The notes beneath the pieces are model-generated. The model saw nothing but the letters and a program-made list of their open reading frames with translations, had not been told where the DNA came from and ran no database searches. From an uncultured Gammaproteobacteria bacterium (GTDB lineage Bacteria > Pseudomonadota > Gammaproteobacteria > JAURND01), in NCBI GenBank assembly GCA_963714975.1, contig CAVQQD010000002.1:1-64000 (forward strand): 64,000 bases of DNA, written 5' to 3'. Shown here piece by piece: positions 7,526 to 36,100 of the stretch. The position numbers and the translations under genes are program-made. The first letter of the stretch is position 1; the number at the start of each line of letters is the position of its first letter.

Positions 7526-8392
7526 ATGAGTGTCAAATCGCAATTAAAACGCTCGTTATACCAATGCTTAAAACGCGACCGCTGCGGTTCTTTTGCTACA
7601 CGCTGGGATCGTCGCGGAATTTTACAGCAGGCTTTAGAGCAAGTGGTAGACTTAGGGTACAAAATTGCAACAGTCGAACAAATCAAGCCTAAGCATATTC
7701 AGGCCTTGGTGAGATTTTGGCAACAGAAAAAATTAGCCGTGGGGACGATCAAAAATCGTTTAGCGGCTTTACGTTATTTAGCCGACGTTTTGCAAAAGCC
7801 CGAGCTGGTCGCCTGCAATAAAACCTTGCAAGTGGGTTCACGCATCCCCTCAACGCGCACAAACAAAGCCTGTGTGCATCCTGATCTTTCTAAAATTACC
7901 GATCCTTATGTTAAAGCCTCGGTAGAATTACAGCGCGTCTTTGGCTTGCGGCGCGAAGAATCACTCAAAATCAAACCGCATCTGGCCGATCAGGGAAATA
8001 AATTATCGTTGCTAGGTTCCTGGTGTAAGGGTAATCGCAGTCGCGAAATTCCGATTCGTACCGAAGAACAACGTCGATGTTTGGATCAAGCCAAAGGCTT
8101 GCTACCCACGCCCAATCAATCGTTAATTCCCGAAGTTAAAAGTTATATTCAACATCGCTATGTCTACGATAAGCAATTACAACGCGCGGGCATAAAATCT
8201 CATGGATTACGTCATGCGTATGCGCAACAACGGTATTTTGAACTCACCGGTTGGCTCGCCCCGATTGCCGGTGGTCCAAAATTTCGCGACATGAACTATA
8301 CGGAACAAAATCAGGATATTCGTGCTAGGATGATACTGACCGAGGAGCTGGGACATTCGCGCCTGTCAATTTTACAAAATTACTTATTATGA
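7526..8392 (+). CDS. Tyrosine recombinase resembling the Integrase_1 type with an N-terminal SAM-like domain
   Basis: Full catalytic set: FGLRREE (R), KGNRSR (K), HGLRHAYAQQRY (HxxR), ELGHSR (H), QNYLL (Y). Confidence 0.9.
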   Translation: MSVKSQLKRSLYQCLKRDRCGSFATRWDRRGILQQALEQVVDLGYKIATVEQIKPKHIQALVRFWQQKKLAVGTIKNRLAALRYLADVLQKPELVACNKTLQVGSRIPSTRTNKACVHPDLSKITDPYVKASVELQRVFGLRREESLKIKPHLADQGNKLSLLGSWCKGNRSREIPIRTEEQRRCLDQAKGLLPTPNQSLIPEVKSYIQHRYVYDKQLQRAGIKSHGLRHAYAQQRYFELTGWLAPIAGGPKFRDMNYTEQNQDIRARMILTEELGHSRLSILQNYLL

Positions 8393-8689
8393 AAAGTTGT
8401 CATGTAAAGTTACTGGAAAATAATCTTACAAACTCCCTAAAATTTCTATACTTTTCTTGACATGATGATACAGAAGTGACACGGAATTTTTTATACCACA
8501 ATGTGTTTTTGTTGCTCAAATACACTGCGATGCAATTTTTTGATCACCTAATTTTTTTCTAGATTGAGGTTTACTTAAACTATCTCGATTGATATGCTAC
8601 TTTCCTTGCGTTTCATTCTTAATCCCCAGATTAGCTATTCGCTGCGGCTCCAATCCAATGAACACGATAACAAAAAAGGAGAGCACCCT

Positions 8690-10486
8690 ATGTCATCACA
8701 AACTAAACTGGAAACCAAACCCAAATCACCGACCCAGCTGATTCGACCGGATGGTGCTACAACAGTATTCCTTAACATTCCCTACAGCGAGTTATCTTTT
8801 GATGACAAAGACAAGCCTTTAGGCAAAGGTGTTCATGGCAAAGTATATAAAGGAACGTGGGATTATAATCCTGTAGCTATTAAGGAATATGACACACAAG
8901 ATTTTTCTGAGAAAACCCAAAGGGAAATTCGTACAGAAGCAACTGTAATGGTGCAAGCCAGCACCCAATCCGATTATTTAGTGCGGTTAAAAGGCATGAG
9001 TTTAGAGAAACCACATTATTGTTTAGTGATGGAGTACATGCCTGGTGGTGATTTATACCATTACCTACACAGCGATCAGGATATTTCCTGGAACATCCGG
9101 TATCGCATTGGTTTGGATATCAGCATTGGCTTGCATCATTTACACAGTAGAGGAATTTTGCATCGTGATTTAAAAAGTTTTAATGTCCTACTCGATAGCA
9201 ATGGTCGTGCTAAGTTAGCGGATTTTGGCTCAGCGACCATTAAAACTTGTTCTTCAGGAAGTACAAGCTTTAAAGGCACCATATTGTGGGCTGCTCCTGA
9301 AACTTTCACAGATGAACCCACCCAAAAATCAGATGTCTACAGTGCTGGCATGATATTGTGGGAACTGGCTAGTCGTGAAATTCCTTACAAGAAAGCGGGA
9401 AGTATGGCGGGGATGTGGATTATGCAAGGAAAAAGGGAAACTTTTCCACCAGATACTCCTACAGAATTTCAGGCCATAGCTGAAGATTGCTGGCAAGCCC
9501 CTGAAAAACGTCCTGAGGCTAAGGTATTAGCCAAACAACTCGATCAATTATGGCAAGCTGCTCAAAAGAGTGAAATAAAAGAAAAAGCGGCGCCACCTAG
9601 TACTAGCCCCAGCTCTTCTGTTGGAAAAAAACTAAATGATGGTAGCCAATTTGCCCCTACTCAACCCATCGACATTAAGACACCTAAAAAAACAGAAGAA
9701 AAAGAAAAGAGCAGCTTGATGACGCAATCTCACTTGGTTACTCAGCAACCCACGGTTACTGCATCACAATCATCCAGTACCATTACACCTTCCATATATG
9801 CCAGTCAACCCGCCTTCTTTGCTGCAGGCAGTAATTCTTCTAGTACCACATCGAGTGAAGCCAAAACTAATGTGGCTCCCCTAGATGGGAAAAGACACCA
9901 ACAATTGATGTCAGTACAAAATGAATTAATTATAGCCTGTGAAAACGGCAGCTTAATCAAAGCTAAAGAGGCTATTTCCAAAGGTGCTTTAGTAGACTTA
10001 CCTGATGAGCAAGGAAAAAATCCTCTGTATTGCGCTATATATGGCATGAATCCTGAGGTAGTGAACTACGTCATTGCACAGCGTGGCGAAAATACCCCTG
10101 CCAGCAGCTGGAGTACCTGTGAAGAACACAATAAAAAGCATTACGGACAAATCTTTTTAAACGTGAAGTTCGCGCCTGTCTACCACAAAGATTGGTATGA
10201 TTTACTCGTGAAAATTGAGTCCAATGAATTTTTGGTGGGGTATCACCTCGCTCAGGTTCAGAAAGGTACTAAGAATGCGGCATTCTGTCTAGCATTTCCA
10301 TTGCTAAAAGCGACTGTCTTTTGTTGGCGTGGGCTGGATGTGTTAAGTGCTTGGGATATTCCGTTTTCTCTGTGTAGAGGTGTAGCGTGGTACACAGAAG
10401 AGGGATATGAGCGTTATAGAAATCAAATTAAGCAGGTGATAGAGGAGTCACAGCTGGTGCAAGTTAATGAGTCAATGAACCTCTGA
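8690..10486 (+). CDS. Eukaryote-like (TKL-type) protein kinase with S/T-rich linker and ankyrin repeat; probable secreted effector
   Basis: GKGVHGKV, VAIK, HRDLKSFN, DFG, APE and DVYS motifs; ankyrin GKNPLYCA; AGGAG RBS before ATG 8690 (the ORF track starts at 8594). Confidence 0.88.
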   Translation: MSSQTKLETKPKSPTQLIRPDGATTVFLNIPYSELSFDDKDKPLGKGVHGKVYKGTWDYNPVAIKEYDTQDFSEKTQREIRTEATVMVQASTQSDYLVRLKGMSLEKPHYCLVMEYMPGGDLYHYLHSDQDISWNIRYRIGLDISIGLHHLHSRGILHRDLKSFNVLLDSNGRAKLADFGSATIKTCSSGSTSFKGTILWAAPETFTDEPTQKSDVYSAGMILWELASREIPYKKAGSMAGMWIMQGKRETFPPDTPTEFQAIAEDCWQAPEKRPEAKVLAKQLDQLWQAAQKSEIKEKAAPPSTSPSSSVGKKLNDGSQFAPTQPIDIKTPKKTEEKEKSSLMTQSHLVTQQPTVTASQSSSTITPSIYASQPAFFAAGSNSSSTTSSEAKTNVAPLDGKRHQQLMSVQNELIIACENGSLIKAKEAISKGALVDLPDEQGKNPLYCAIYGMNPEVVNYVIAQRGENTPASSWSTCEEHNKKHYGQIFLNVKFAPVYHKDWYDLLVKIESNEFLVGYHLAQVQKGTKNAAFCLAFPLLKATVFCWRGLDVLSAWDIPFSLCRGVAWYTEEGYERYRNQIKQVIEESQLVQVNESMNL

Positions 10487-10596
10487 ATTGGAGGGGTGCG
10501 GATTAAACAACGATGTAAATAGTGAATTAATTGTCGTGGGTAATCCGTGAGTAGCCTATAAAATCACGTAATCCTGCCCTGCGCCAAAGCTTAAAT

Positions 10597-10926
10597 TTGA
10601 CTACATTGGATACTCAAAATTATCCTAGACACTACGGACAAATTTTTTTAATTATGAAATTTGCGCCAGATTATCCCAATGATTGGCAGGATTTACTAAA
10701 GAAGATTGAACCCAATGAGTTTTTAGCGGGGTATCATCTCGAACAGGTACATTTTTATTACGAAAATCGTGAGTGGAACTTCGATTTTGCCGCGTTGAAG
10801 AACTGCGATTTGAATAAGGAGTTGTCCGCATATTGCCGAAGTCGAGAGGGACTCGTCTTTTGCTCTTTGAACTCGAAAATATGCTTTTTACTCTTCCCAA
10901 AACCGCATCCCTTCCGGCCAGGATAA
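10597..10926 (+). pseudogene. Orphan partial copy of the kinase C-terminal module
   Basis: HYGQIFLIMKFAPDYPNDWQDLLKKIEPNEFLAGYHLEQV matches HYGQIFLNVKFAPVYHKDWYDLLVKIESNEFLVGYHLAQV of the upstream gene; no good start. Confidence 0.75.
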
Positions 10927-11325
10927 GCCCAGTTCGCTAACCCCATGATGGATACAGCCGCGCAGTGCCTGCTCCCAATCGTCACTGTAAGCAGGGTAAC
11001 CCACGTCGCGCATCAAATCACTACTGCAGGCGGCCAAACTGACCACGGCAGAAGCCAGAGCCTTAATTTGCTTGGGGTGTTGGTAAAACGGTTGATAGCG
11101 CCACCAGCGGTTGAGTAGAGTTTTAACTGGCCGTAGTAATTCTTGTTGGACTAATACTACGGTGCTACTCAAGCCCACCAGCGTATTTAAATCCCGAATA
11201 AAATCCTGTGCTGAAGCGGTTTCGACTTGTTCCGGGTGATTCATATAAAATCCCAAGGCTGCTGCGAAGAAATGGGTGAGGGCACGTAATTCACGCGAGG
11301 TCCAAGGCTTGTCGAGTCGTCTCAT
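10888..11325 (-). CDS. Hypothetical protein, last gene of the CDPS-kinase-receiver operon
   Basis: GGAGG RBS and ATG at 11325, 2 bp after the receiver stop codon; no recognised domain. Confidence 0.6.
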   Translation of the reverse strand: MRRLDKPWTSRELRALTHFFAAALGFYMNHPEQVETASAQDFIRDLNTLVGLSSTVVLVQQELLRPVKTLLNRWWRYQPFYQHPKQIKALASAVVSLAACSSDLMRDVGYPAYSDDWEQALRGCIHHGVSELGLSWPEGMRFWEE

Positions 11326-11327
11326 TT

Positions 11328-11723
11328 TTAACCCTCCAGGAAATAATGGGGGGCTGCGGCTGATAATACTAAATCGTCGATCATCTGCCGGCATAATTCT
11401 TTCGTCAGGGGCTTCAGTAAAAACCCCTTGACTCCTAACTCATAGGCTTGCACTTTTTGCTGCACATCTTCGTGGGTGGTGACGATGACTATCGGTGTCT
11501 TACTATTGGGCCCTTTGCTTTGCCGCAAGTGGCGCGCGATCGTAAGGCCATTTAAGTCTGGCAGATCCAAGGTTACCACCACTAACCGGTAAGCTTGATG
11601 CAGCTTTTCTAAAGCGGCTAGTCCCCCATTGACCACGTTGACGCAGCAATGCAAGCTTTCAAAAAATCGGCGGGTGGTGTAGGCAATCATCGGATCAGGT
11701 TCAATGAGTAATACATTTTTCAT
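11328..11723 (-). CDS. Single-domain response regulator with an atypical receiver
   Basis: REC fold motifs VLLIE, PIVIVT and LLKP; overlaps the kinase stop; Thr at the expected phospho-Asp position. Confidence 0.85.
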   Translation of the reverse strand: MKNVLLIEPDPMIAYTTRRFFESLHCCVNVVNGGLAALEKLHQAYRLVVVTLDLPDLNGLTIARHLRQSKGPNSKTPIVIVTTHEDVQQKVQAYELGVKGFLLKPLTKELCRQMIDDLVLSAAAPHYFLEG

Positions 11724-13117
11724 GGGTAAGTTTCCTGTGGTTGGAAGGGAATGAACAGAGTGAAGGTGCTGCCTTGATTAAGTGTGCTTGCTACCTGAAT
11801 TTCACCGCCTAATTCGGTTAAAAATTGTTTGACTAGGCTCAATCCCAGCCCCTTGCCTTCATACTGCGCTTGATAGGAAGGAGTGAGGCGATGAAAGGGT
11901 TCAAAGATTTTTTCGCGTTGCTCTGCAGGAATCCCGATGCCGCTGTCGCTTACGGTGAAGCGAATTAACCACTGGTGTTCACGTTCAGACTCAACCGCGG
12001 TTTGTAGGCGCACAAACCCTTTGGGCGTGAATTTGATCGCATTGGCGAGAACATGTAGCAAAATTTGCTGGGTGCGCAGCCGATCACCACGAACGCTGGT
12101 CGGCAAAGACTGGGTCACTTCCCAAGTAAAATGTAATTGCTTGGCTTGGGCGGCCGGCGCTAGCATCGCATAGGTGGTTTGCACCAGGGCCGGTAAATCA
12201 AAAGCCACTTGGCTCACCGGGGTGCCGGCTGTGGAGCGTACATAGTCTAAAATTTCATTGAGGTGAGTGAGTAAGGCCTCAGCTGAATCCATGATGCATT
12301 GCAGTCCCATTTTCCGTTCTGGATTTTCTTCATTTAACGCCAGGGTTTCGGTCATGGTCACCAGACCACAAAACGGCGTCCGTAAATCGTGGCTGATGTT
12401 GTGCAGAAAATCGTCTTTGGCTTGCAGGGCTTGCAACAACGCCTTTTCGGCTTCGATACGGGCGGTAATATCAATTGAAACGCCCGCCATTCCCACAATT
12501 TGACCGCGACGACGCAGTGGCACTTTGTGAGAAAGAAAAATCGCTGTGCGGCCATTCGGCAACACCGCCGGTTCTTCGACAATCTGCGCTTCGCCAGTGC
12601 GCATAATGGTTTGATTGAGCGCATCTAAAGTTTCAGGTAATTGCCCGGCATTGATATTCCAGGGCAAATCGCTATTACGTTTACCCACAATGTCTTCACG
12701 CGAAGCCAGGCCTGCGGATTCGGCTTGCTGATTATTACAGCCTAAATATCGCCCTTCACGATCGATCCAATATAAATGTTCTGGCATGATGGCTAATAAA
12801 TTATCGAGTAATTCGTATTGCTCCTGCAGCGAAGCAGGAGGCGGACGCTGTCGATATAAAATAATGCCTACAACCACCGCGCCACAGGTGAGCATACTGA
12901 GGGTATACCCCCACACCAATAGCTCATCCCTCTCCAAAAAACCGTGCCAAACAATGGTCGCTTGAATTAGCCAAAAGCCGACAAAGGTCAGCAAGGAAAC
13001 TTCCTGGGCAGTTTTTTCTTTGAGGATTTTGATAAATTGCGGAATAAACAGCAGGGCGTTGATAAAAAGCGCGCTGCTCAATAACAGATTAGAAAGGGTA
13101 GGGAAGTTGAGTAGCAT
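11720..13117 (-). CDS. Sensor histidine kinase: PQ-loop (SemiSWEET-like) 3-TM domain - PAS - HisKA - HATPase
   Basis: FIPQFIKILKEKTAQEVSL PQ-loop, YWIDREGRYLGCN PAS, SHDLRTP, NAIKFT, DSGIGI, GLGLS. Confidence 0.9.
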   Translation of the reverse strand: MLLNFPTLSNLLLSSALFINALLFIPQFIKILKEKTAQEVSLLTFVGFWLIQATIVWHGFLERDELLVWGYTLSMLTCGAVVVGIILYRQRPPPASLQEQYELLDNLLAIMPEHLYWIDREGRYLGCNNQQAESAGLASREDIVGKRNSDLPWNINAGQLPETLDALNQTIMRTGEAQIVEEPAVLPNGRTAIFLSHKVPLRRRGQIVGMAGVSIDITARIEAEKALLQALQAKDDFLHNISHDLRTPFCGLVTMTETLALNEENPERKMGLQCIMDSAEALLTHLNEILDYVRSTAGTPVSQVAFDLPALVQTTYAMLAPAAQAKQLHFTWEVTQSLPTSVRGDRLRTQQILLHVLANAIKFTPKGFVRLQTAVESEREHQWLIRFTVSDSGIGIPAEQREKIFEPFHRLTPSYQAQYEGKGLGLSLVKQFLTELGGEIQVASTLNQGSTFTLFIPFQPQETYP

Positions 13118-13130
13118 CGAAGTGACTCCT

Positions 13131-13883
13131 CTAAGTTAGCTTGGATTCAATGGGAGGTAAGGACATAAAGCGCTGTGGCTTGAATTGTTTGCGCTGCTTA
13201 AACTTAATCGCGATCGGGTGTAATAAATCGGGATAGCGTGGAAGTAAGAATTGTTGATGAGTATAGGTCATCGCCGCATTGCGTGGGCTGGGGTAGACCT
13301 CATAATGGCACTGCAATTCCGGCCATAAACACAGCGCGGTGCATTCTTCCAGGACATAATCTCGACATAATTCCTGGGCACGGACGTAGTTAAATTGCCT
13401 CAGCATTTCAGGAGATAAACGTGGGGTGTAGCGCTGTAAAAAAGCGCGGACGGTGCTATGTATAGCCTGTTGGTAAGCCGGGTATTGGCTCACTAAATAG
13501 TTGACGCGTCGAAAAGTGGCTGGATAACGCGGATGAGTTAACCAATAATCCCACCGGACTATTTTAAGCTGCGGTAACTGTTCATAAACAATTTGATTGC
13601 GCGCTAACCACGCTTCGCCTTCTTGCTGTGCACTGGTTAAAAAATCCTCCGCTTTGAGTTCAGGGTTTGGTAATGCCAGAGTATGGCGCTGTAAAGTATC
13701 ATCAATTAGCAAAGTGCAGCGTGCAAACTGTTGGCGTACTAAAGCTACGGTCGTCGCAAATGGCTCGCCTTCGTGCACTTCTTGACCGACGCTAATCGTC
13801 AGTAAACAATGTGCCTGATCAAACGGAATGGGCGCGTGAGTTGCGTCGTATTTGAAAACGGGTTTGATTTTATTCGGATTCAT
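13131..13883 (-). CDS. tRNA-dependent cyclodipeptide synthase-like protein (XYP type)
   Basis: About 250 aa with ISVGQEVHEG, DDTLQRH, YVLEE and EVYP motifs, matching the catalytic Ser, YxxxE and YP layout of XYP CDPSs. Confidence 0.75.
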   Translation of the reverse strand: MNPNKIKPVFKYDATHAPIPFDQAHCLLTISVGQEVHEGEPFATTVALVRQQFARCTLLIDDTLQRHTLALPNPELKAEDFLTSAQQEGEAWLARNQIVYEQLPQLKIVRWDYWLTHPRYPATFRRVNYLVSQYPAYQQAIHSTVRAFLQRYTPRLSPEMLRQFNYVRAQELCRDYVLEECTALCLWPELQCHYEVYPSPRNAAMTYTHQQFLLPRYPDLLHPIAIKFKQRKQFKPQRFMSLPPIESKLT

Positions 13884-13991
13884 CGGCGCGTTCCTGGGTT
13901 GATGCAAAAAAAAGCATCGAACCAGGGTAGGCAAGCAGAAGATTTTAGGATGGCGAGGCGATATAAATCACCCCGCCATACCGTTCCTCTC

Positions 13992-14216
13992 TTACTTGCC
14001 TACCCCTCTTTGCATCGATGTTGGCCACCAAAAAACCCGTACACTTGCACCCCAGGCCCATAACCCGCCGAAGACAGTCGAGGAAATTCCATGGGGTGAA
14101 AGTGGCTTCAGCCAGGCGCGAATAACCCCCCTGAATGAACTCGGGTGAAAAAATGTAGCCCACATCAAAAAAAGAGTTTTGCAGGAACCTGCAATGCAGT
14201 AAGCTAGACTTACCAT
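13992..14216 (-). CDS. Possible leader ORF upstream of the CDPS gene
   Basis: Strong AGGAGG RBS before ATG 14216; its stop lies inside an inverted repeat; no recognised homology. Confidence 0.35.
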   Translation of the reverse strand: MVSLAYCIAGSCKTLFLMWATFFHPSSFRGVIRAWLKPLSPHGISSTVFGGLWAWGASVRVFWWPTSMQRGVGK

Positions 14217-14541
14217 TTCGGCTAACCTCCTAACAAGGTTGGTTTGTTATGGGAGTGCCTCAAGAATGCGGTAAACATTCTTTTTGGCGCGGCCTCGGAG
14301 GCGCAAGCCCCCGAGGCTTTTCTATTATTCATTGACTTTGACTGAAATGCAAATTTTTCTTAAGGGCGGCTTATCTTAGGCTTTAACTTCAGTCAACTGA
14401 TCTATTCTGAGTGGCCTATCACATCTCTGCTTTCGATTTCCGCTTCTTTTATAAATCTTTTGCTACACTTGTTAATTTTTCCTTAAGCTAGTAGACTGTG
14501 CCCGTGGTTGGGTAGTATCGCAAGTGCGACAGACCAACCCA

Positions 14542-14709
14542 TTGTTATTCTGAGCGAACCGAAGGGCCTCCTAGTAAGCGTCGTCCTGGCGTGGATGTCA
14601 GGATTCACCCACAGGGATGTGAAAATTTCGCTTCCTACCTTGGATTATTGCTTCCTGCAGGGATTAGGAGGCCAGGGGGGGAGGTCTTTCGCTTCGCTTA
14701 GAATGACAA
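14542..14709. repeat. REP-like palindromic element with a long structured spacer
   Basis: Imperfect ~30-bp arms ttgttattctgagcgaaccgaagggcctcc / ggaggtctttcgcttcgcttagaatgacaa, related to the elements at 56337 and 62040. Confidence 0.7.
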
Positions 14710-14771
14710 ATTTGTTAGGAATTTATTGAGGAGGGAATTTAAAAACCCAAACGTGAAGTTATTGCAGTCCT

Positions 14772-17700
14772 ATGGCCCCTAATATTTTCACTTGTTTTAT
14801 CATTGGAGAGGATAATCTCCATTTGGAATGTGCCAAAATTATCCAACAACAAGGACAGCAAATAATAGGCATTATCTCTGCGTATGAAGCCGCAGAACTC
14901 TGGGCTTTGCAACAGGGAATTCCCCACTACGCCTCGCTAGCAGCCGCGCAAGAAGCACTTAACAAGACTCCCTTTGATTATTTATTTAGTATTGTTAATT
15001 CACAGATTTTGCCTGCGGCGATACTCAATCTGCCTCGGCAATTGGCGATTAATTTTCATGATGCGCCTTTACCGCGTTACGCGGGAGTTCACGCCACTTC
15101 TTGGGCGATCTTAAATCAAGAAAAGACCCATGGCATCACTTGGCATGTGGCCATTGAAACCGTCGATGCCGGTGATATTTTGCAGCAAGTGATGGTGCCG
15201 ATTACTGAAGATGAAACCGCGTTGAGTTTAAACCTCAAATGCTATGAAGGCGCACTGCAAAGCTTCCCTGAGTTAGTGAAATCCTTAGTGAATCATAGTT
15301 ATCAGCGCCAACCCCAAGATTTAAGTCAACGTACCTATTTTGGTTTTCATCAAAAACCTGCTGGTGATGGCTGGATTGATTGGAATGCCAGTGCTGAAGC
15401 TATTGAGCGATTATTTCGGGCTACTCAATTTGGCTCTTATCCTAATCGTTTTACTTGTCCGAAATTTAGACTGTCATCCCAGCAGCGCGAACCGTCATCC
15501 CAGCAGGGAAGCTGGGAAGAATTTATTGTCACTAAATTAGCATTATTACCCGAGCCATCGATTGCAGCTCCTGGAACAATCGTTGCTGCTACTGCGGATT
15601 ATTGGCGCATTGCAACTGCTAGTTATGACATCGCCATTCGGCAGATTTGTACCTTAGAAGGTGATGTAGTTACTCTGGAAGTCGGAGCAGAAATTCCCCC
15701 TTTGTCCTTCGAGACGCTTCGCTCCTCAGGACGAATGGGGGGCAGGGGGGATTTAAACAGCGGAGGAGGCGATGAAGCCCACTGGGTTTCCCAATGGCAA
15801 ACTATCGAGCCCGCCAAAATACCTTTCCTGAATTTTAATCACCGCGAAAATAAGTCCTCATTCCTTCTCCCCTTGTGGGAGAAGGTGGCCGAAGGCCGGA
15901 TAAGGGGAGAACCCTCAGAACCCATCCCTCGTCCGCCAGCCTACCCTGAGCCTGTCGAAGGGGCACTTTCTCCCACAAGGGGAGAAGGAATAATGCCGGA
16001 GATGTATGAGAGGGGGTACTATCACCTACAACAATGGACTCCCCCCGAACCTTTGCAAAAATTATTACAACACCATTTCCCCGCCCACGATTTCAACACC
16101 CTGCTATTAGCCCTCTGGCTGGTCTATCTCTATCGCCTCGGCAACCAACCCAAAGTAGGGGTGCTGCTGCAATTAGCTTATCATAATGCTTCACATCCGA
16201 GTGATCTGGATCCTGGCATCTATGCCAGGACGAGTTTAGAACTACCGTATTTCACTGCCTTACAAGACGGGTTACACTTCGGCCAAGTTGTGACCCAATT
16301 ACAAGCTGAGCTACTTGCTATGCAACAAAAAGGCGGTTATTTACGCGATATATTTTATCGTTACCCGAATTTAATCGAGGTCAAACACGCCGTGTTTACT
16401 GCTGTCGTGATTGGAGAAATCGATCAGCTACAAAAATCTCGTGCTGCTTTAGTGTTGATGATATCCGCCAAAGATGGCAGTGTATCTTGGCACGTCGATC
16501 AAAAATGCTTAGCGCAAGAACCCTATTTAAAAACCATCCTGCAACAAATGCCTGGTCATTTAGAAACCTTGCTAACCGCCATTACCATGCAACCTGAAAC
16601 TCCTATCGCTGATTTAGCGCTACTCACGCCACAAGAACAGCAGCAAATCTTAATCGATTGGAATCAAACTGAGACCGACTATCCACGCGACAAAACTATT
16701 CCACAATTATTCGAAGAACAAGTCAAAAAACACCCCAACAAAATCGCTGTGTGCTTTGAGAATCAATCCCTCAGCTATCGCGAACTCAATCAAAAGGCCA
16801 ATCAACTTGCGCATTACTTACGTCAGCAAGGGGTGGTAGCTGAAACTTTAGTCGCAATTTGCATGGAACGCAGTATCGAAATGATTGTTGGGATTTTGGG
16901 GATTTTAAAGTCGGGCGGTGCTTATGTACCGATTGATCCTGAGTATCCAAGAGCGAGAATAAAGTTTATTTTCGAGGATTGTCGAGCTATGTTTGTGATT
17001 ACTCAATTTCGTCTTGCTAAGAAAATACATACTATTACAGATGGCGCTGTTATCACGGTTGATAAAATTAAAAATATCAAAATTCATAACAAAGAATCTA
17101 TTAGCTTAAATTTTGACTCTTCTCAATTGGCTTATGTCATTTATACCTCAGGTACTACGGGGAAACCCAAAGGGGTTCTTATTAAACACCAGGGAGTAGT
17201 GAATACGGTCTTGGCAAAGCTACGAAAATTTGCCATTAATCACTCTGATAGAATCTTAAATTTTTCCACCCTTAGTTTTGATGCTTCTGTGTGGGAGATA
17301 TTTCCTTGTCTATTTGCAGGAGCAACCTTATATTTGGCCAGGAAAGAAAATTTGTTACCAGGCAGTAAACTTACGAATTTTTTAGAACAAAATAAAATTA
17401 CTATTGCTACTTTAGTGCCTTCTATACTAGCGATAACTCCACCACCTTCTACCTCCCATTTGCGGATAATTATTTCAGCGGGTGAATCATGCTCGAAGGC
17501 GGTAGTAAAGCAATGGGAAAACGTCCCTGTTTTTGTTAATGCTTATGGACCCACTGAATTTACAATTTGTGCTGCTATGGCAATCGTAGGTAAAGATGCA
17601 AAGAAAATAACTATTGGTAGACCGATCCCGAATACTAAAATTTTTATTTTAGATGATAACATGCAACCTTTACCAATGGGTATAACTGGAGAGTTGTACG

Positions 17701-20700
17701 TCACAGGACATGGTTTGGCAAAAGGATACTTAAATCGAGATGCACTGACCAAAAGTAAGTTTATACCTTGGGCTTTGGAGCATGGAACCAATGAGGTATC
17801 TCAAATAGTGTATAAAACGGGTGACTTGGCTCGTTGGTTGCCTGATGGTAACCTAGAATATATGGGCCGAGTGGATGAACAAATTAAAATTTTAGGCTGT
17901 CGGGCAGAGTTAGGTGAGCTGGAAGAAATAGCAGTAACGTATCCTAATATTTTACAAGCTGCGGCTTGCCTAGATACAACAGCCGAGAAAAACCAAATTA
18001 ACCTCTTTTTTATCAAGAAAAGTAACCGCAATGCAATTGATATTGCAAAGTTTAATCGCTTTCTAAAAAAACAGGTTCCTCGTTACACTGTTCCTTCAAA
18101 AATAATTGAAATTGCTCGATTTCCAAGAACTGTTAATGGAAAAATTGATAAAAATTTACTGCTCAAAAAACCATCTCTCATTAATGAACAAGCAGTTGAA
18201 GGACCTATGTCAGTCAAAGAAACATTACTCTTAAAAATTTTTCAAAAGCTACTCGGGATAGATTCACTTAATTTAGAGGACAACTTCTTTTTTTTGGGAG
18301 GTGATTCGATTCTGGCAATGCACCTGATTTCTAAAATTAATGCATTAGGCTTTCAATGTTCAGTGCGAGATGTATTTGAAGCACCCACCATAAAAAAATT
18401 GGTTAAAAAATTACATGAAAAAACCGCCATAAAACCAACTGAGCCATTAGCCAAAGATTTTACTTTAACACCAATTCAGCACTGGTTCTTTGAACAATCC
18501 TTCACTCATCCGCAGCAATTTGTTCAGACTTGTTGGTTAGAGTTTCAAAAAACTGTTGATGCAGAATTACTGCTTTGCTGTTTGCGAGAAATTATTGAAT
18601 GGCATGAAATTTTTCGACTTCGATTTAAAAAGGAGCAAGGAAATTGGCAGCAATATTATGCCGATAAGGTTAATGAATTATGTGCTAATTTTTCAGTCAT
18701 TGATGACCCTGCGCTTGTAGTTCAGAATTTTGCAAGTGAATGGGCGATGAATGTGGCCCAGGATTTTGATTTTGAGACGGGCTATCTACTCAAAGTGGCC
18801 TTAGTGCGCCAGCAAGGGCAAATTACCCATTTACTTTTGGTGGCGCATCATTTGATTATGGATGGAGTTTCTTGGCAAATTTTCTTGGATGAATTGCAAA
18901 GTTTATATGTAGGATCGAAAGAGGAGGAGAGTGCTAACTGGCAGAAATTTGCTAATAGTACTTCCTATCAGCAGTGGGTTTACGCATTAGATAACTACGT
19001 AGCTTCCAATTCATTTAAGCAAGAACAAGGCTATTGGCAAGGCATTGGTCCATTTACGCCCATTCCTATCGATCATCAACGCGGGATCAACACAGAATTT
19101 TTTGCCGACAGTGTTACTATAAAATTAACAGCAGGAAAAACTTATCAGTTATTGCGCACGCTAGCTAGAACGCATCACTTGAATGTTGAGGAAATTTTGA
19201 TTGCTTTATTGGTTAAGACCCTTATACATTGGTGCCAAACAGACTACATTACGTTGGATATAGAACGCCATGGCCGCGAAGAATTAACAAAAGCAATTAA
19301 TTTATCTGGCACTTTAGGTTGGTTTACTAGTGTGGTCTCCCTGCAGTTAAGCTGTAATATAGGTTTATCGCTGTTAGAGATAGTTCAGATGGTTCAGGAA
19401 CAATTAAAAACACTACCATACCATGGCATTGGTTATGGTTTGCGGCAGTATAGTGAAAAAAAATCTTTTAAGCAGCAAGCACAAATCGCTTTTAATTATT
19501 GGGGACAATTGGATCAAGCTTTTGCGCAAAATTTCTTCAGCTTGGGCGAGTTAAAATTGTTATCACACCCCGAGAATAAGCGTCCTTATTTAATCACTAT
19601 AGATGCTGTGATTAAAAATAAGCAGCTTGAACTCAGTTGGATTTATAGCCGTAACTACCATCGTCGTGAAACGATAGAAAAATTGACCCAATATTTTTTG
19701 GCTGATTTAAAAGATTTATTATCAGCTAAATTCTTAACGGAACATTTTCCCACCACGATATCCTCTTTTCCTGAAGTCAGTGCTCAAGCCCTCGAGCAAA
19801 TTGCTCAAACTTATGCTAAGTCGGAAATTAAAAATATTTATCCGCTTGCTCCTTTACAAAAAGGCTTATTATTTCACGCTCTAGAATCACCGACTTCGGA
19901 AGCTTATGCGGTGCAGCTGGTATGGAAAAGTGAAGCAAACAAGCTGCTGTCTATTGAGCGCTTACAGAAAGCGTTTGATTTTGTGGTCAATCGTCATGAT
20001 GCATTAAGAACCAGTTTTATTTGGGAACATATTGAGCAACCGCTGCAAATTGTGTGGGAAAAAGTACAGACTCCTTGGACTCATTATGATTGGTCTGCTG
20101 TTCATTTGGGAGAGGAGCAACAGCAGCGTTTGGAGGTGTTTTTACGAGCGGAGCGGCAATCCGGTTTTGACTTTCACAGCAGTGGTTTGCTACGTGGCAC
20201 GGTTTTCAACCTACCGGAGCATCGTCATTACATAGTGATTACACTGCACCATATTTTAATAGATGGTTGGTCTTTGCCTTTAATGTTGCAGGAAGTGTCG
20301 CACCATTACGAGGCTTTAGAACAGTTAAACTTCATCCCTGCAAAACAATATGGGGATTATATTCAGTGGTTACAGCAGCAAGATTCCGCAAAAGCTAAAG
20401 TCTTTTGGACTGAGTATTTACGGGGTTTTTCCAGTCCTACGGTTTTAGAACCCTTGATGAAATCTCATGGCCCGAAAGCTGGTAGTGTAGTAGACATCCA
20501 GGAACATCGCTGGAACTTGGAAGAAGTGTTGATGTGGCAGATAACCCGTTTCGTACAAGAAAATCATCTGACCCTCAGCGTGTTTTTCCAAGGAATTTGG
20601 GGGTTGTTACTACAGCACTACAGCCAAAGTGATGATGTGGTGTTTGGTGTCACCGTCACGACTCGTGATCCTACTATGACACAGGCAGAGCAAATCGTGG

Positions 20701-30189: not shown

Positions 30190-33100
30190 ATGGCAGAATC
30201 TAAAAATTTGCACTTGAATGATTTAGAAGAAATCGAGGAGCATAAAAAATTTTTTCCTCAAACTGAAGAACATCCTGAGATTCCAAAATCAGAACTGTCA
30301 ACACTCAACACTAATAACCCCAAAGAGAAAAAAATACTAGTATCAGACAGATTTACTCTATCCCAGGGCCAGCTAGTTCCTGATTATCCTATTTCGGTGG
30401 CATCTCAAAGTTTATTACCACTCTCGCAATTTAACGACTATTCATTGTTCTCATTTTTTCAAGGGGACCTCGATGAAAAACCGAAAACTTCAACATCAAG
30501 CAACCTTAATCTTTCAGATTTTATTTCCGATCCAGATGGGCCTATCGCTATACACGAGCACAAATTAGATACCAATAAAGAGCATAAAAATGAGAAACAA
30601 TCCTCAGGTTACATGCCGCCCCTTTTGACTGAACTCTTGCAGGAATTAGCGGCTGAATTGAAAGTAGAAAAACCAAAGCCAGAAACCTTAAATGCCTCTT
30701 TTACCCTGTTGTATCAGCACTGCACTCGGTTGTCGATCGAGGGCTGGCAGCAGTTTTTGCCTTTAGTGCACGCCTACATGCAGCAATGCTTGCCGGAGCG
30801 TAATACTTTGTATGGCTATTACCAACAAAAAACGCATTCTGAAATTTTACAGCAAGCTCAATGCCTCTTGTGGCAGTATGAGCAAATTGGGGTGTATGCG
30901 CAGCAGAGTTTAAATCACTTGGTGGTGCATGAGTTTTATCGGCAAGGGGCTATTCACTTAGTTCAAAAAGGTTGCCACTATCCTGAGCAATGGCTTGGAG
31001 AACCCCAACTTCTTGGCATAACGATCACCAAGCCAGTAGAAAAAATTGCTTTTGATGAGGCTAAAGCCCAAAGGCGCTGTCAAAATAATCCTAAACTAAA
31101 AAATTACTACGAGGAATTTGTGCGGCATCTGGCGGCATGCTTATGTGCAGCCATCATTATTTCTTCGGAGCGTGTTGATCCTTCTCAAGGATTTACACAG
31201 ACCATTACCGCAGCACTCATCGAAAAGCTTATTCCTGATATCTTACACCTGACTCCTCTCGCAGGCGGAAAGATCAGTGCGGTTGCTAAAATAATTCAAA
31301 CCGTGTCTGATTTTGCCTTTAAGCTACGGGCACAGCGTGATGCTAGGCGCGTCTGCGCTTGGTCGTTAACCGCTTATGAGAGCGGTCGATTAGCTCGATC
31401 ACTCGGGTTACGTTTGGCTTTATTACGCGAACCCACTCTAGTGTCTACTTTGGCTCCCTCTGAGATTTCAACCCAATCCTCAGGTATCGATAAACTCAAA
31501 GAAATCAAAGAGTATGCCATTACTCAAGTAGAGGCGTTTACCGATCAAGCAAGGGTTAGTCTTCAAGAACTGAAAGAAAGCAAAAATTTTGATTCCGCGG
31601 GAGCGCTGGCTTTAAAAGACAGTGATATGATGTTGGATTTGCTGCAACAACACACCCCAAATACCCAGCATTGGGGAGGTTCAGATGATTGGCTCAATGC
31701 GAATGCGGGATTTTTAGCAGACCAATTTCAAAAGCAGTTAAATCAGAAAACTGTGTTCAATTCATTTTTCTCAATACCGCAAAGTACTGTCTCCATAGAA
31801 AGTTCTTGCCAATTAACAGTACCCAGCACCTCTTTTCCGTCTGCCCGATTTTATCAAGGGAGTTATCAACCATTGACTGAAACGATCTGGTTGCAGCATA
31901 AGCAGACTGCTGATGCGCGAATGTGGCGTAAGGAGCATGAGCAGCAGTGGAATTTGCTTGATAAAACCAATTTGGATGAATTGCTGAAGTTTCAAGAACA
32001 AATTCTGGAAGATTTACAGCTGTCTTTGGGATGGAGTGATAAAGAACGCCCAGAAATTTTAGTCCACTATGTGCGGCCGCTATGGGCTCAGGACCTGGGA
32101 ATTAAAGTACTTACCCAAGCGATTCAGAGTGCTGCTCATCAATCCTGGTCGTTCTGGGAACCCCGCCATCAACAGCTACAAAGAGCACTAGAGCGTCTGC
32201 GCTCTCAAGACAGCGAATTAGCTGAAATCGTGGGTCGTTGCTATTTTCGTGCTCTGGCCGAATGGCAATTGCAAGTAGCAGCGGCGAGTGAACGGCAAGC
32301 GCAAGAACTGGAAAAATTAACCTTAGAACAAAAGCTGTGGGAAAACCGTGCTGAAACTTGGAAGAACGATTTTCACGCTAAGGTCAAAGAATTAGGGATA
32401 GATTTGAGTGCTCCGACACCCGGTGTACCACCTCTGACTGAAGAGCAGCGTACTATTTATGCGAATCCTGAACAATTCCGTCAACTTGCTATCGCAATTT
32501 GGGGAAGTGGTCAGGATTTTAGTATATTAGAGCCCCATAGTCATTACTGGGAGTCCAACTGGAAAAGTGCCCGCAATCAGAACCGACCGGAAGCCAACCC
32601 GATGCATTTGGCGTTAAGTTGTGCTTATCGAGAAGCCCAGCACGCCGTTGAGGATGCCGCTGCCGGCAAACACCATGTGCTCCACGCGCGCCGAGAATCC
32701 TTGAAACAGCAACTGATGCAAAGCAAAACGACAGCAGAGGCACTGACTAAAATACTCCAGGCTCAAAGAGTAACAGAACACAAATTTCGCGGACATGTGC
32801 AACCCACTATACTTTCCCAACTGCCTAGTGTGGTGAGGGTGCCGGATCAAAAATCTTCCTCTCTTAAAAAATCCTTCCAAGAGCGGGTCACAGAATTTTG
32901 GCAACGGGCGGCCCAAGAAGCGAGTGAGTTAGAACGCCAACTGGGTAATCCCCCCTGCGGCTTTAGTGTCTTAGCCTGGCCAGTCGATGGTCCCCAGATA
33001 TTGCAAGGAATTTGGCGCTGTGGTTTTTTTCTCACCGAGCCTGCTAAGGTGGACCATCTCTATTGGCGCCGGTATTATTGGTTCCTGCAAGAACGTTTGA

Positions 33101-36100
33101 AGACCTTAACCCAGCTTTTAGTCTTACCCATGCAATGGGCAGAACTCACTCAGGCCCAAGAGTATCAAGTCGACTCCCTAGATGTAATTCCTTATCGTCA
33201 TATGGCTTGTTGTTTGAGGGTCAGCGAGACTGAAGCGCAGCAAGCACAGAATTTATGGCCAAGTTATCAAGAGCGCAGCCAGGCCAGGCTTGCTGAAGCC
33301 ACTTTACCAGAACACAAAATGCCTCTCTCACGTGCCTTAGCGCAGCAAGATATGAAGGCTACACTTACTCCTGTGCCTGCTGCGATGAAACAAACAGTCG
33401 TAAAGCATCCAGTATGTGACCCCATGGCTACGTTACTGCGTCCTTTGCAATTATGGTTACGGGATGCCGCCAGCTTTTATGGCCTGGCTCCAGAGACACC
33501 AGAAAATTTGTTGAATGCACTGCAAACCCAGGAGCTTCTCCACCCGGATTTTATTACCGATTTGCGTGCAGCTTACACCTGGGCATTGGCTCACAGTGAA
33601 GCGTTGCAGGATGCCTGGATACATGAAGAGCCACCAGTCGGCCTTAATCTTGGGCAAGCCATTTTGCTTGCGGATAATGAGGCAGTACCCGAGCAATACC
33701 ATAGCGCTTTTTATTTATCCGCTCGACACTATCGACAGCACTGCCGTTACACCTTAGAAGTACTGCGACAAACTTATAGGGCGACGTATGCGCGTTGGTG
33801 CCACCAGGAAGCAATTCCTAAGGCCTTTAATCCTGTGGCCTTTCAGGCTAAATATTTATTAGAGCAAGCGGCCAAGTCAGAGTTGACGGATCGACAAGCC
33901 TTTAGGGTTTTAGACTCTGTTATTGAAGCGATCTCCCATCACCCCTCACTGCGAAAATCAGCGGATTGGCAACTCTCTAATTTTTTACAATTAAGCAAAG
34001 CGCGGCAATTGTATTATGTAGAACATCTTGCTCCTTATTTAACCTATGAGGAGCAAGACGCCCCTGAGGGGCTTATGCAGCAGCTTCTGAATGTCCCAGA
34101 ATTGAGTGGTCGACGCCTACGTTGGGTCAAGGAACAAAGGGAATGGCAGGAGCGACTACTCCCTATGCTTTGGGCAGAAGACAAGACGACGACTACTACA
34201 GGATTACCCCCTACTCAGAGTTCTGAAGCGTCGACTTCTTCAACAAACATAGAGCACGATACTTCAATCCAACCTCCTATCCGGGAGGAAAAAGACCAGG
34301 TAACGCCTAATGAAATAAAGGCGACGGTACCACCCATTCAGATGAGTGTGGTACGGCAAATCCAAAGCAATGGTGAATTAATTTGGCAAGTCCAGACACA
34401 CTTACTCAAACCCGAGGTAGCTAAGAAACTTTTTGACTCTACAGGACAATGGCTTCCAAAGGATCCCAAAGTTCCGGGGAACCATCGCGTTTTCCCCATC
34501 AAAATCGACAATCAACGATTCTGGATCAAGGCTTATCCCGAGCAACCCGCTATAGAATGGATTGTTCACCAATTGGATCGCCGCTTGGGAGTATTTGGTA
34601 CCCCGCGTTTTGAAGTGGTGAAATTTCATCACGGGGGTCAAACTTCTTGTGCATTACTTAGTGAGCATGTCATGGGTTCTACATTGAAAAAGGTTACTCA
34701 AAAGAAACCTAAAAGACTCGCCAAGTTGGATTTTATTTCATTCGCTCGCACTTTATTGCGCGTTTTGCTGATTAATCCTGAGGATGATAAAGATGATGAT
34801 TACTTGCTTGAAATTCAGCCAAACGGTCAACTGCATTTAAAACGAATTGATAACGATCGCGCATTTTTTGAACCCTTTACAGCAGAGGGCAATTACTTTT
34901 TTAGCAAGGCGACTTTGCAAGTCAAAAGTGTGGTGTATTGCTTGGAACAAATGCGTCAAAACTGGCCTTGTGAGCCTAGGATGCAAAGCCTTTTGGAAGA
35001 GTGGCGGCGGATACAACCCCTGACCTTGATGCAAGATTTATTAGATCAGGCTACGAAACAACAGCTGGCGTGGAAAGAATTGTTTTCACAAACTGAGGTT
35101 GAGGATCATTTTAAGTTGCCTGACCCTGATAAATGTTTAGCCGTGATGTTTTTCCCCCCCGGAGTCACCAAGGAAGTTATCAACCGATTGACTTTGATGC
35201 AAAATTCGCTTCGCGTAGCGGCCCAAAAACTTGCTGAAGCTAAAACCCCTCATATTAGCTCAGAGCCCAAAAAACCTAGTTTTTACCCACTGAATGGATT
35301 GACTTTGCTGTACGATACTCAGCCGAAACTAGGGCGGTATTATGCTAAATCCCATGGGGAGCATGTCAGTTCACAGGGCGAAGAACCTAAGCAGAGTGCT
35401 GAAATTACGTGTGATCATAGTCAAGTAGACCATCGCTTTTCCCAAGCAGTGGGTCCTTGGTATAAAAAAAATACTCAAGGGGAGATGACAACTAACATAT
35501 CGAGTTTCAAAGCTTTCCAAGTGAGTCTTCGGTTACAAAAACCTTTAAAAATTGAGCAATTAAGCAATATGTGGCTCGGACAAGAATTCAGTCCTCAGCA
35601 AGAATTAAGTGGGTTAAAAGAGTGGCGGATGACGCGTTTACGCCATTTAGAACAACGAATGTTAGCGCCTAAGTCCACTGTGTTAGCTGAATCAAAAATA
35701 TTACCCCAAAATGCAAGTCTTACCTCTCAAAATGAAGAAAAACTTTGGCAAAACCATCACGCACATGCAGCAGAGGAATTTCGGGCCTTACCACAGCCCC
35801 AACGCGAGAAAATATGGAATAATTTTTATTTAAAACTGCGGCGTCAACAGCTGAATGATCCGCAGCAATTAATTATACTCCATGCCATGATCGGAGCTGG
35901 TTGGCGAGAACTGGATTTGAGTGTATTTAATCCTGAATTAATTACCGACGAAAAGGTAACGGCATTACTGAGAGGGACACAGACAGCCTTACCTGTCATA
36001 CCGTTGCTTAAACTTAATCTGAATGGTTGTTATTGCTTATCGGAAAATATTTTAGATATAATTCAGCGTTACAGCTATGAAACCCTTGAGCGCTTATACT

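Follow-up and report, generated by a model that had tools for sequence, protein, structure and literature searches.

We describe a four-gene cassette in which the gene for a cyclodipeptide synthase (CDPS) is coupled to genes for a sensor histidine kinase and a receiver-only response regulator. It lies in a window of 64,000 nucleotides (the whole stretch of DNA analysed, positions 1 to 64,000 of contig CAVQQD010000002.1, GenBank assembly GCA_963714975.1) from an uncultured Gammaproteobacteria bacterium; the genome comprises 2.56 Mb in three contigs (C1 to C3), and the window forms the beginning of C2. The cassette was interpreted as a modular cyclodipeptide signalling system with the CDPS as synthase, a PAS kinase as receptor and a SemiSWEET-like unit as facilitator, and we put the chances of this interpretation at about even. 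That Legionellales, some Rickettsiales and other host-associated bacteria share such a diketopiperazine system, consisting of a CDPS, a SemiSWEET uniporter specialized for cyclodipeptides and a cytoplasmic PAS kinase receptor, is proposed tentatively and is rated somewhat short of an even chance.

In the proposed mechanism, the XYP-type CDPS would make a small polar cyclodipeptide from two aminoacyl-tRNAs, and the adjacent histidine kinase would be its dedicated receptor, with the cytoplasmic PAS domain as the most likely binding site, setting the kinase activity. Histidine kinases are dimers; the SemiSWEET-like units, brought together in such a dimer or forming homodimers of their own, would equilibrate the polar diketopiperazine across the inner membrane. 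The cytoplasmic ligand level would thereby report the level outside the cell or within a host vacuole, which would amount to quorum or confinement sensing. Phosphoryl groups would pass to the receiver-only regulator and onward to some output, and in the window genome the cassette may control a neighbouring nonribosomal peptide synthetase (NRPS). This signalling role, from product to phosphotransfer, is a prediction from sequence comparison.

The synthase and its linkage to a kinase

The CDPS gene (13131-13883, 250 amino acids, aa; minus strand, as are the three genes that follow), the kinase gene (11720-13117, 465 aa), the receiver gene (11328-11723, 131 aa, Pfam Response_reg) and the gene for a hypothetical protein (10888-11325, 145 aa, lineage-specific) are separated in this order by 13, -4 and 2 bp in the open reading frame (ORF) list, the receiver ORF overlapping the kinase stop by 4 bp; these coordinates and gaps are exactly those given in the initial annotation of the window. 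The CDPS start was placed at the ATG at 13883, in agreement with the N-termini of aligned homologues, and that of the hypothetical gene at the ATG at 11325, within a longer ORF (10888-11394). Shine-Dalgarno-like sequences were seen at two starts, AGGAG 8 nt ahead of the kinase ATG and GGAGGG ahead of that of the hypothetical gene. From their spacing the four genes are predicted to be co-transcribed. A promoter and terminator scan returned promoter matches at consensus level only and terminators at chance level. The single match in an Rfam scan of 10000-15000, to tfoR RNA, lay in the kinase ORF at 22 bits against a threshold of 70 and was rejected. The operon itself is free of tailoring enzymes, as annotated, but a divergently transcribed NRPS gene that encodes a formyltransferase domain lies 888 bp away.

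By PDB homology and conserved catalytic residues, the ORF at 13131-13883 belongs to the XYP CDPSs. Searched against the PDB with phmmer, it matched 5ocd over residues 7-230 (E 2.2e-54), followed by 5mlq and 9i5m (E 9e-33) and 5mlp (E 1.4e-7), all annotated as cyclodipeptide synthase. The hallmarks of XYP CDPSs, as set out in passages of PMC7613923, are a catalytic Ser, a conserved Tyr, Glu and Tyr, and X-Y-P in place of N-Y-H. All 19 aligned homologues have S31 (in ISVGQ), Y176, E180, Y197 and P198, and the X-Y-P signature is formed by Q34 (Ser+3, Gln instead of Asn), Y197 and P198. The identification of this ORF as a CDPS, originally made without database searches, was in this way confirmed, and it is of the XYP type. 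Three of its 184 relatives of near-equal length are called cyclodipeptide synthase by their sources. The ratio of nonsynonymous to synonymous substitution rates (dN/dS) of the CDPS among three intact paralogues within the genome is 0.11-0.17. Entry 5ocd is Fdum-CDPS of Fluoribacter dumoffii, described in the text consulted as an XYP enzyme that uses two Gly-tRNAs (PMC12945691); CDPS substrates are aminoacyl-tRNAs, and the product of the Legionella lansingensis XYP CDPS is cGE, according to sections of PMC5816076. CDPS activity and a cyclodipeptide product are predicted for the window enzyme from this homology. By analogy, the small polar products of the characterized Legionellaceae relatives, cyclo(Gly-Gly) and cyclo(Gly-Glu), are a point in favour of the signalling model.

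Linkage was measured in 53 loci (20 from genomes and 33 from metagenomes, numbered L below), each with a relative of the window CDPS. The search patterns were built from the conserved motifs of this clade, and the sample covers this clade rather than all XYP CDPSs. Kinase pieces were placed on the loci by tblastn and were taken as linked when within 1.5 kb of the CDPS. By this measure a PQ-loop piece and/or a PAS kinase accompanies the CDPS in 47 of the 53 loci (PQ-loop in 35, PAS in 41, both in 29), or in 42 of 47 when six near-duplicates (L037, L038, L050, L053, L058 and L059) are left out, at CDPS identities to the window of 34-54%. All six loci with a PQ-loop only end at a contig edge, and in three loci the kinase is on the opposite strand to the CDPS. 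Record titles of the loci include Legionella, Legionella maceachernii, Tatlockia, Legionellales, Coxiellaceae and a Rickettsiaceae metagenome-assembled genome (MAG); in the GTDB order of the window genome, three of nine species genomes have this CDPS. Of the six loci without linkage, L052 is a true miss, its flank being 3.4 kb long. L011 retains only a remnant of the kinase core, the flanks of L026 and L054 measure 17 and 401 bp, the CDPS of L057 is truncated, and L059 is a fragment.

The longer CDPS relatives (592-1007 aa) are fusions of the type CDPS-PAS(-PAS)-kinase(-REC) in 16 of 16 cases; the PAS domain begins 5-20 residues past the end of the CDPS match, ISVGQ is kept in all 16, and the fusion in L025 was confirmed as a single 767-aa ORF. 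As Rosetta-stone evidence, these proteins imply that CDPS and PAS kinase act together. Synteny and fusions show, at the level of gene order and protein architecture, a CDPS-kinase linkage far beyond chance and hence a functional coupling, so that the association with PQ-loop/PAS kinases noticed in a single operon proves to be conserved. A synthase gene kept adjacent to a sensor kinase is also the arrangement of Lqs/Cqs-type circuits.

Two or three CDPS paralogues lie beside one PQ-loop-PAS kinase in L027, L034, L041 and L044, which suggests either several products per receptor or heteromeric use. Tailoring genes are scarce. A class-I S-adenosylmethionine methyltransferase (308 aa, Pfam) directly adjoins the CDPS at L012:1943-2866, and a 308-aa ORF at L028:5059-5985 resembles it in its N-terminus, as read from the sequence; such genes stand beside the CDPS in these two of the 20 listed genome loci, and in a small share of cassettes the methyltransferase may act in tailoring.

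The catalytic part of the window kinase (11720-12442, kinase residues 226-465) consists of HisKA (233-298) and HATPase_c (344-459), with the His in an SHDLRTP motif and no receiver or Hpt domain. Besides PQ-loop, PAS, HisKA and HATPase_c, Pfam returned only a weak 7TMR-DISM match for the kinase, and the best partial NCBIfam matches of the core were ArcB, BarA and TorS. The receiver (Response_reg, E 1.7e-19) has no output domain; its Asp in TLDLPD and Lys in LLKP were read from the sequence. HisKA, HATPase_c and Response_reg all score above their Pfam cutoffs. Fused REC and Hpt domains in L013, L019, L023 and L064 point to a phosphorelay as the output. The hypothetical gene has no Pfam or NCBIfam family and no usable Atlas match; its paralogues elsewhere in the window genome are 24-45% identical. 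No homologue was found beside the cassette in loci L009-L061, and on these results it was left out of the core module.

The membrane unit, the PAS domain and the proposed site of sensing

The kinase starts with a PQ-loop/SemiSWEET-like unit of three transmembrane (TM) helices (12833-13117, kinase residues 1-95; helices 5-34, 42-61 and 65-88; PQ motif P26-Q27). The Pfam PQ-loop model matched residues 8-46 at 23.1 bits against a cutoff of 22; it matched the N-terminal units of related loci in 14 of 14 cases (best E 4e-9), and MtN3_slv matched six of the 14. AlphaFold2 predicted three helices (pLDDT 89.6). The top 11 Foldseek rows were SemiSWEET chains (4rng, 9kax, 4x5n, 5uhs, 4x5m, 4qnc and 4qnd) at probability 1.00, with E values that are modest for this short query (8e-3 to 8e-2) and TM-scores of 0.60-0.74 (query-normalized) and 0.65-0.85 (target-normalized). 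A profile of 14 PQ-loop units searched against the PDB gave 4x5m (E 3.4e-9), 4rng (2.4e-8) and 9kax (3.5e-8). The SemiSWEET-like nature of the N-terminal unit, recognized at the outset, is well supported by these results. The charge distribution, read from the sequence, places the C-terminus of helix 3, and hence the PAS domain and kinase core, in the cytoplasm.

In the solved SemiSWEETs 4x5m and 4rng, a Trp and an Asn, which we take to be the sugar-binding pair, align with I55 and Y71 in the window kinase, and a non-sugar substrate is therefore plausible. The PQ-loop family has invariant intrahelical polar residues of its own (N20, Q27, Q52 and S74). Of the 1040 relatives of the unit, the best 150 include 97 stand-alone proteins (up to 160 aa), seven two-repeat proteins (204-254 aa), which fit with a two-unit assembly, and 38 proteins of more than 300 aa; 36 of these 38 also match the window PAS domain. 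Six of the relatives above 300 aa for which BLAST gave no match with the kinase core were scanned, and HATPase_c was found in each. A complex prediction with two copies of the PQ-loop unit, run without controls, scored 0.29 against a mark of 0.42 and was counted neither for nor against pairing.

It had been suggested in the initial annotation that kinase dimerization could rebuild a transporter-like pocket that senses or moves the cyclodipeptide. As such a transceptor, two SemiSWEET-like units joined by the kinase dimer would form a pocket, and binding or passage of periplasmic cyclodipeptide would signal through the PAS domain to the core. The fold and homology of the unit are solid, in-frame fusions of it to the kinase occur in the window and eight of the 20 genome loci, nearly all of its long relatives match the window PAS domain as counted above, the invariant polar residues are its own, and substrate-sensing transporter-fused kinases exist in CbrA and CrbS, on the accounts cited below. 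Against these points, the unit is a separate ORF of 96-113 aa in at least five loci (L020, L021, L024, L027 and L028), has no match in 12 of the 53 loci that retain the PAS kinase, is absent from all 16 CDPS-PAS-kinase fusions and is less constrained than the PAS domain among paralogues. In L021, L027, L029, L040 and L060 it lies upstream of the CDPS; the stand-alone genes of the first two loci are at L021:718-1011 and L027:5658-5975. We regard the transceptor as rather unlikely, and the rebuilt pocket as a sensor fits worse than a PAS receptor.

The cytoplasmic PAS domain (PAS_4; 12443-12832, kinase residues 96-225, Pfam E 1.7e-11) is the proposed ligand-binding part. It is found in 41 of the 53 loci and in every one of the fusions. 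Among paralogues within the genome, dN/dS is 0.02-0.07 for the PAS domain, 0.06-0.17 for the core and 0.11-0.25 for the PQ-loop part. Across related loci, PAS identity is 23-62% (best matches mostly 45-62%) and kinase-core identity 22-63% (mostly 23-47%). Distances were analysed in the window and in those 15 of 47 loci in which each of the four parts has its full length (16 sequences); the mean pairwise distance was 0.44 for PAS, 0.44 for PQ-loop, 0.49 for CDPS and 0.67 for the kinase core. With the core controlled, CDPS distance correlated with PAS distance (partial Mantel r 0.40, p 0.003) and, somewhat less well, with PQ-loop distance (r 0.31, p 0.03) in these 16 related sequences; the co-divergence of CDPS and PAS is weak support, because the sequences are kin and the genes are neighbours. 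As the PQ-loop unit is modular and the PAS domain is near-constant and the most constrained, the PAS domain is likely to be the cyclodipeptide receptor and the SemiSWEET-like unit an accessory conduit.

A PAS receptor in the cytoplasm would also serve intracellular metabolic sensing, in which the charged-tRNA pool sets the level of a cyclodipeptide second messenger that is read by the PAS domain of the same cell, reporting amino-acid or translation status and not density. The 16 fusions are fully cytoplasmic and have no transporter domain, the loci without a PQ-loop match point the same way, and the use of aminoacyl-tRNAs by CDPSs is as cited above (PMC5816076). The SemiSWEET-like unit in 35 of 53 loci nevertheless implies membrane passage, stand-alone PQ-loop genes remain beside the CDPS, and we consider purely intracellular sensing improbable.

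A parallel module was observed in Legionella genomes, at L062 (G002:C31:41000-53000), L063 (G009:C28:102500-112500) and L064 (G005:C1:1261000-1276000). It is composed of a stand-alone PQ-loop gene (90-130 aa), a protein of about 425 aa, a PAS(-PAS) kinase and either a receiver or a 334-aa REC-like protein. The ~425-aa protein occupies the position of the CDPS and has no Pfam family; it has 101 homologues, the named ones all from Legionella, Tatlockia or gammaproteobacterial MAGs, and was not found in the window genome. AlphaFold2 modelled it with a pLDDT of 92 and a pTM of 0.91, and no PDB match was obtained by fold or sequence. A divergent CDPS was considered and rejected for now on these PDB searches and an hhalign probability of 0.5%. 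The idea had come from a passage of Gondry 2018 (PMC5816076), where CDPSs of Legionellaceae are said to include some that carry insertions and an additional domain at the C-terminus. The position of the ~425-aa protein hints at a candidate second signal synthase on the same transporter/receiver chassis.

Genomic setting and the neighbouring NRPS

The cassette lies within an island of about 23 kb (about 2967-26208) that also contains a NACHT-like NTPase, a phage-type integrase (7526-8392), a 630-aa eukaryote-like Ser/Thr protein kinase with ankyrin repeats (8594-10486, Pfam), the NRPS, a hybrid kinase and a UvrD/ankyrin protein. The NRPS (14772-23864, plus strand, 3030 aa) has a formyltransferase, two AMP-binding, two condensation and two PP-binding domains and a thioesterase by Pfam. 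It is divergent from the cassette across the intergenic region 13884-14771 and was duplicated together with it. Its stop is overlapped by the soluble hybrid kinase (23851-25935, plus strand; PAS-PAS-HisKA-HATPase-REC by Pfam), the PAS domains of which are the closest relatives of the cassette PAS in the genome (37% and 34% identity by blastp). The island is repeated at 85-91% DNA identity at C3:789778-814429 and, inverted at the far end of C2, at C2:1215914-1239205, with partial copies elsewhere.

A second cassette beside natural-product genes was found on MK748464.1 (L066, 7938-10980), a plasmid of Candidatus Endohaliclona renieramycinifaciens, where CDPS, PQ-loop-PAS-PAS-kinase and receiver adjoin renA-D. 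The CDPS is annotated there merely as a hypothetical protein, and the receiver ORF after the kinase is missing from the gene table (PLSDB tables are incomplete). It is a reasonable guess that the cassette controls the neighbouring NRPS in the window genome and on the renieramycin plasmid. NRPS linkage as a general feature of the cassette was rejected: with the window NRPS as query, tblastn (E <= 1e-10) found no homologue in the flanks of the 53 other loci.

These neighbours bear on two further explanations. In the first, regulated secondary metabolism, the PAS kinase would sense an unrelated cue (oxygen, redox or a host factor) and control production, and the PQ-loop unit would export the product onto host or competitors. 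CDPS products are classically bioactive natural products, an NRPS adjoins the cassette both here and on MK748464.1, a methyltransferase or similar ORF stands beside the CDPS in L012 and L028, and Aravind's group has proposed that CDPS products of intracellular bacteria serve host manipulation (Iyer/Aravind 2010, PMC2922099, in the part consulted). A receiver-only regulator, however, cannot itself switch transcription, conservation is higher in the input domains than in the core and these domains co-vary with the CDPS, a direct CDPS-PAS fusion is simpler if the PAS domain reads the CDPS product, and the other loci have no NRPS in their flanks; we judge this explanation unlikely, while taking it seriously. 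In the second, the cyclodipeptide would be a building block or co-product of the NRPS pathway, with the two-component genes as ordinary cluster regulators. Such a link agrees with the co-duplication of cassette and NRPS and with their proximity on the plasmid, but the CDPS-kinase pair is conserved where the flanks hold no NRPS homologue, and we consider a biosynthetic link of this kind very improbable.

The genome holds at least seven cassette copies, and only that of the window (copy A) has all four genes intact. Copy B (C2:389k) consists of CDPS and kinase only; in copy C (C2:1228k) the receiver is cut N-terminally and the hypothetical gene is frameshifted; in copy D (C3:800k) the CDPS is frameshifted; in copy E (C2:1178k) the CDPS is split by a 1712-bp insertion sequence (IS) and the kinase is frameshifted; and in copies F and G (C2:961k and C2:615k) deletions fuse the first CDPS codons to the receiver. 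Intact copies are under purifying selection (dS 0.24-0.41).

The signalling interpretation has to be weighed against a series of contrary observations. With only one fully intact copy, the function may be redundant or decaying in this genome. The initial annotation called for confirmation of the CDPS by hidden Markov model or structure prediction; phmmer established homology to solved CDPSs, but the curated NCBIfam model TIGR04539 scored 21.3 bits, below its cutoff of 45, and the Pfam CDPS model had no match to the window CDPS at E <= 0.1. The CDPS parts of L025 and L064, clear relatives, likewise miss the curated models, which for this reason seem not to cover the clade. The sole PDB match of the PAS domain by sequence was the BvgS PAS (E 8e-4), and, within the kinase, constraint is weakest on the PQ-loop unit. 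No regulon can be named, since the output protein consists of a receiver alone. In the fusions and in the 12 loci without a PQ-loop match, a self-made ligand would act in cis unless exported, and metabolic sensing fits these equally well. Lastly, the module of L062 in G002 has a PQ-loop gene and a PAS kinase with no synthase-like gene between them.

Several smaller features of the island and its surroundings were recorded. The intergenic region between CDPS and NRPS holds an element of about 400 bp (about 13974-14378), 66-85% identical copies of which lie upstream of at least seven orphan receiver-only genes (blastn within the genome; C2:318698, C2:904420, C3:63356, C3:175570, C3:293450, C3:424540 and C1:263797). 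The orphan receivers are 39-51% identical to the cassette receiver, and three open with a short stretch similar to the N-terminus of the CDPS; the orphans look like relics of former cassettes that lost CDPS and kinase by deletion, in the manner of copies F and G. The 1712-bp IS is present in the window at 1255-2966 (DDE_Tnp_1_4 transposase, 1336-2901) and in at least seven copies that are 99-100% identical, one of them splitting the CDPS of copy E. The region of the Ser/Thr kinase has several diverged copies in the genome, and a 109-aa ORF (10597-10926) following this kinase repeats its C-terminal region, as read from the translations. A 2540-aa ORF (30190-37812), with one ankyrin repeat near the C-terminus as its sole Pfam match, may be a giant host-interaction protein.

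Significance and comparison with known systems

To our knowledge, the standing of diketopiperazines as true bacterial signals has long been disputed, largely for want of a known dedicated synthase-receptor pair. If the signalling interpretation is correct, the cassette would be the first case in which synthase and receptor of a cyclodipeptide signal are genetically defined as a pair, and its membrane unit would be the first SemiSWEET with a substrate other than a sugar, widening the known biology of these transporters. The cassette would then probably switch secondary-metabolite genes in its neighbourhood (the window NRPS and the renieramycin genes on MK748464.1). Its kinase would represent, alongside CbrA/CrbS, a second class of kinases fused to a transporter, and the system would offer a way to study how bacteria inside host cells perceive crowding or confinement to a vacuole and set the timing of secondary-metabolite production. 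The cassette makes the question of diketopiperazine signals testable, being composed of a small enzyme, a PAS domain of 130 residues and a membrane unit of 95 residues, and the natural fusions and fissions of its parts are built-in controls.

What appears to be new, judged from gene content and architecture, is a synthase-plus-sensor circuit assembled from previously unconnected parts. In the main text of Skinnider et al. 2018 (PMC5767969), as far as it was available, PAS is among the commonest non-biosynthetic domains near CDPSs and quorum-sensing products are proposed; these two ideas are shared with the present work, and histidine kinases, PQ-loop/SemiSWEET units, fusions and these taxa are not mentioned in that text. 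Beyond this PAS passage, no report of a CDPS-kinase fusion or a SemiSWEET-kinase was found in open-access text, and the supplements of PMC5767969 and PMC5816076 may list such neighbourhoods. The initial view that the circuit had not been described stands, within this literature, for the kinase fusion and the SemiSWEET-kinase but not for the association of PAS domains with CDPSs and quorum sensing.

The window CDPS resembles Fdum-CDPS (5ocd) and the L. lansingensis enzyme in near full-length homology, in the same Ser/Tyr/Glu/Tyr residues and X-Y-P, and in size, with no extra domain. It differs in its pairing with a kinase: in the portions of the XYP CDPS literature consulted, those enzymes are handled as stand-alone, with no partner kinase mentioned. 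The membrane unit shares with the SemiSWEET sugar uniporters (4qnc, 4qnd, 4x5m, 4rng and 9kax) the three-helix fold, sequence homology and the PQ motif. Unlike them, units of the window type are often fused to a PAS kinase and have a CDPS as genomic partner, not sugar metabolism, and the presumed sugar-pair positions are Ile and Tyr in the window unit instead of Trp and Asn.

The SLC5-STAC kinases CbrA and CrbS carry a solute-transporter domain at the N-terminus of a histidine kinase (PMC7096432, PMC13022988 and PMC5715377), and the window kinase shares this layout. It differs from them in having a 3-TM PQ-loop unit that needs pairing instead of a 13-TM SLC5 domain and in being without STAC by Pfam, and the transporter unit of the cassette frequently has a gene of its own and is associated with a synthase.

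Legionella Lqs and Vibrio Cqs are composed of an autoinducer synthase, a membrane sensor kinase and a receiver protein. No Lqs model was among the best 25 of 86 NCBIfam matches. What the cassette shares with these systems is its logic, in which genes for a small-molecule synthase, a sensor kinase and a regulator of the receiver type lie together. The parts are probably unrelated: in the cassette, the synthase is a tRNA-dependent CDPS and not of the pyridoxal phosphate-dependent acyl-transferase type, the input is a SemiSWEET-like unit with a PAS domain, and the signal would be a diketopiperazine and not an alpha-hydroxyketone. By analogy we propose that the cassette works like Lqs and Cqs, as a counterpart to these systems and not as a member of them.

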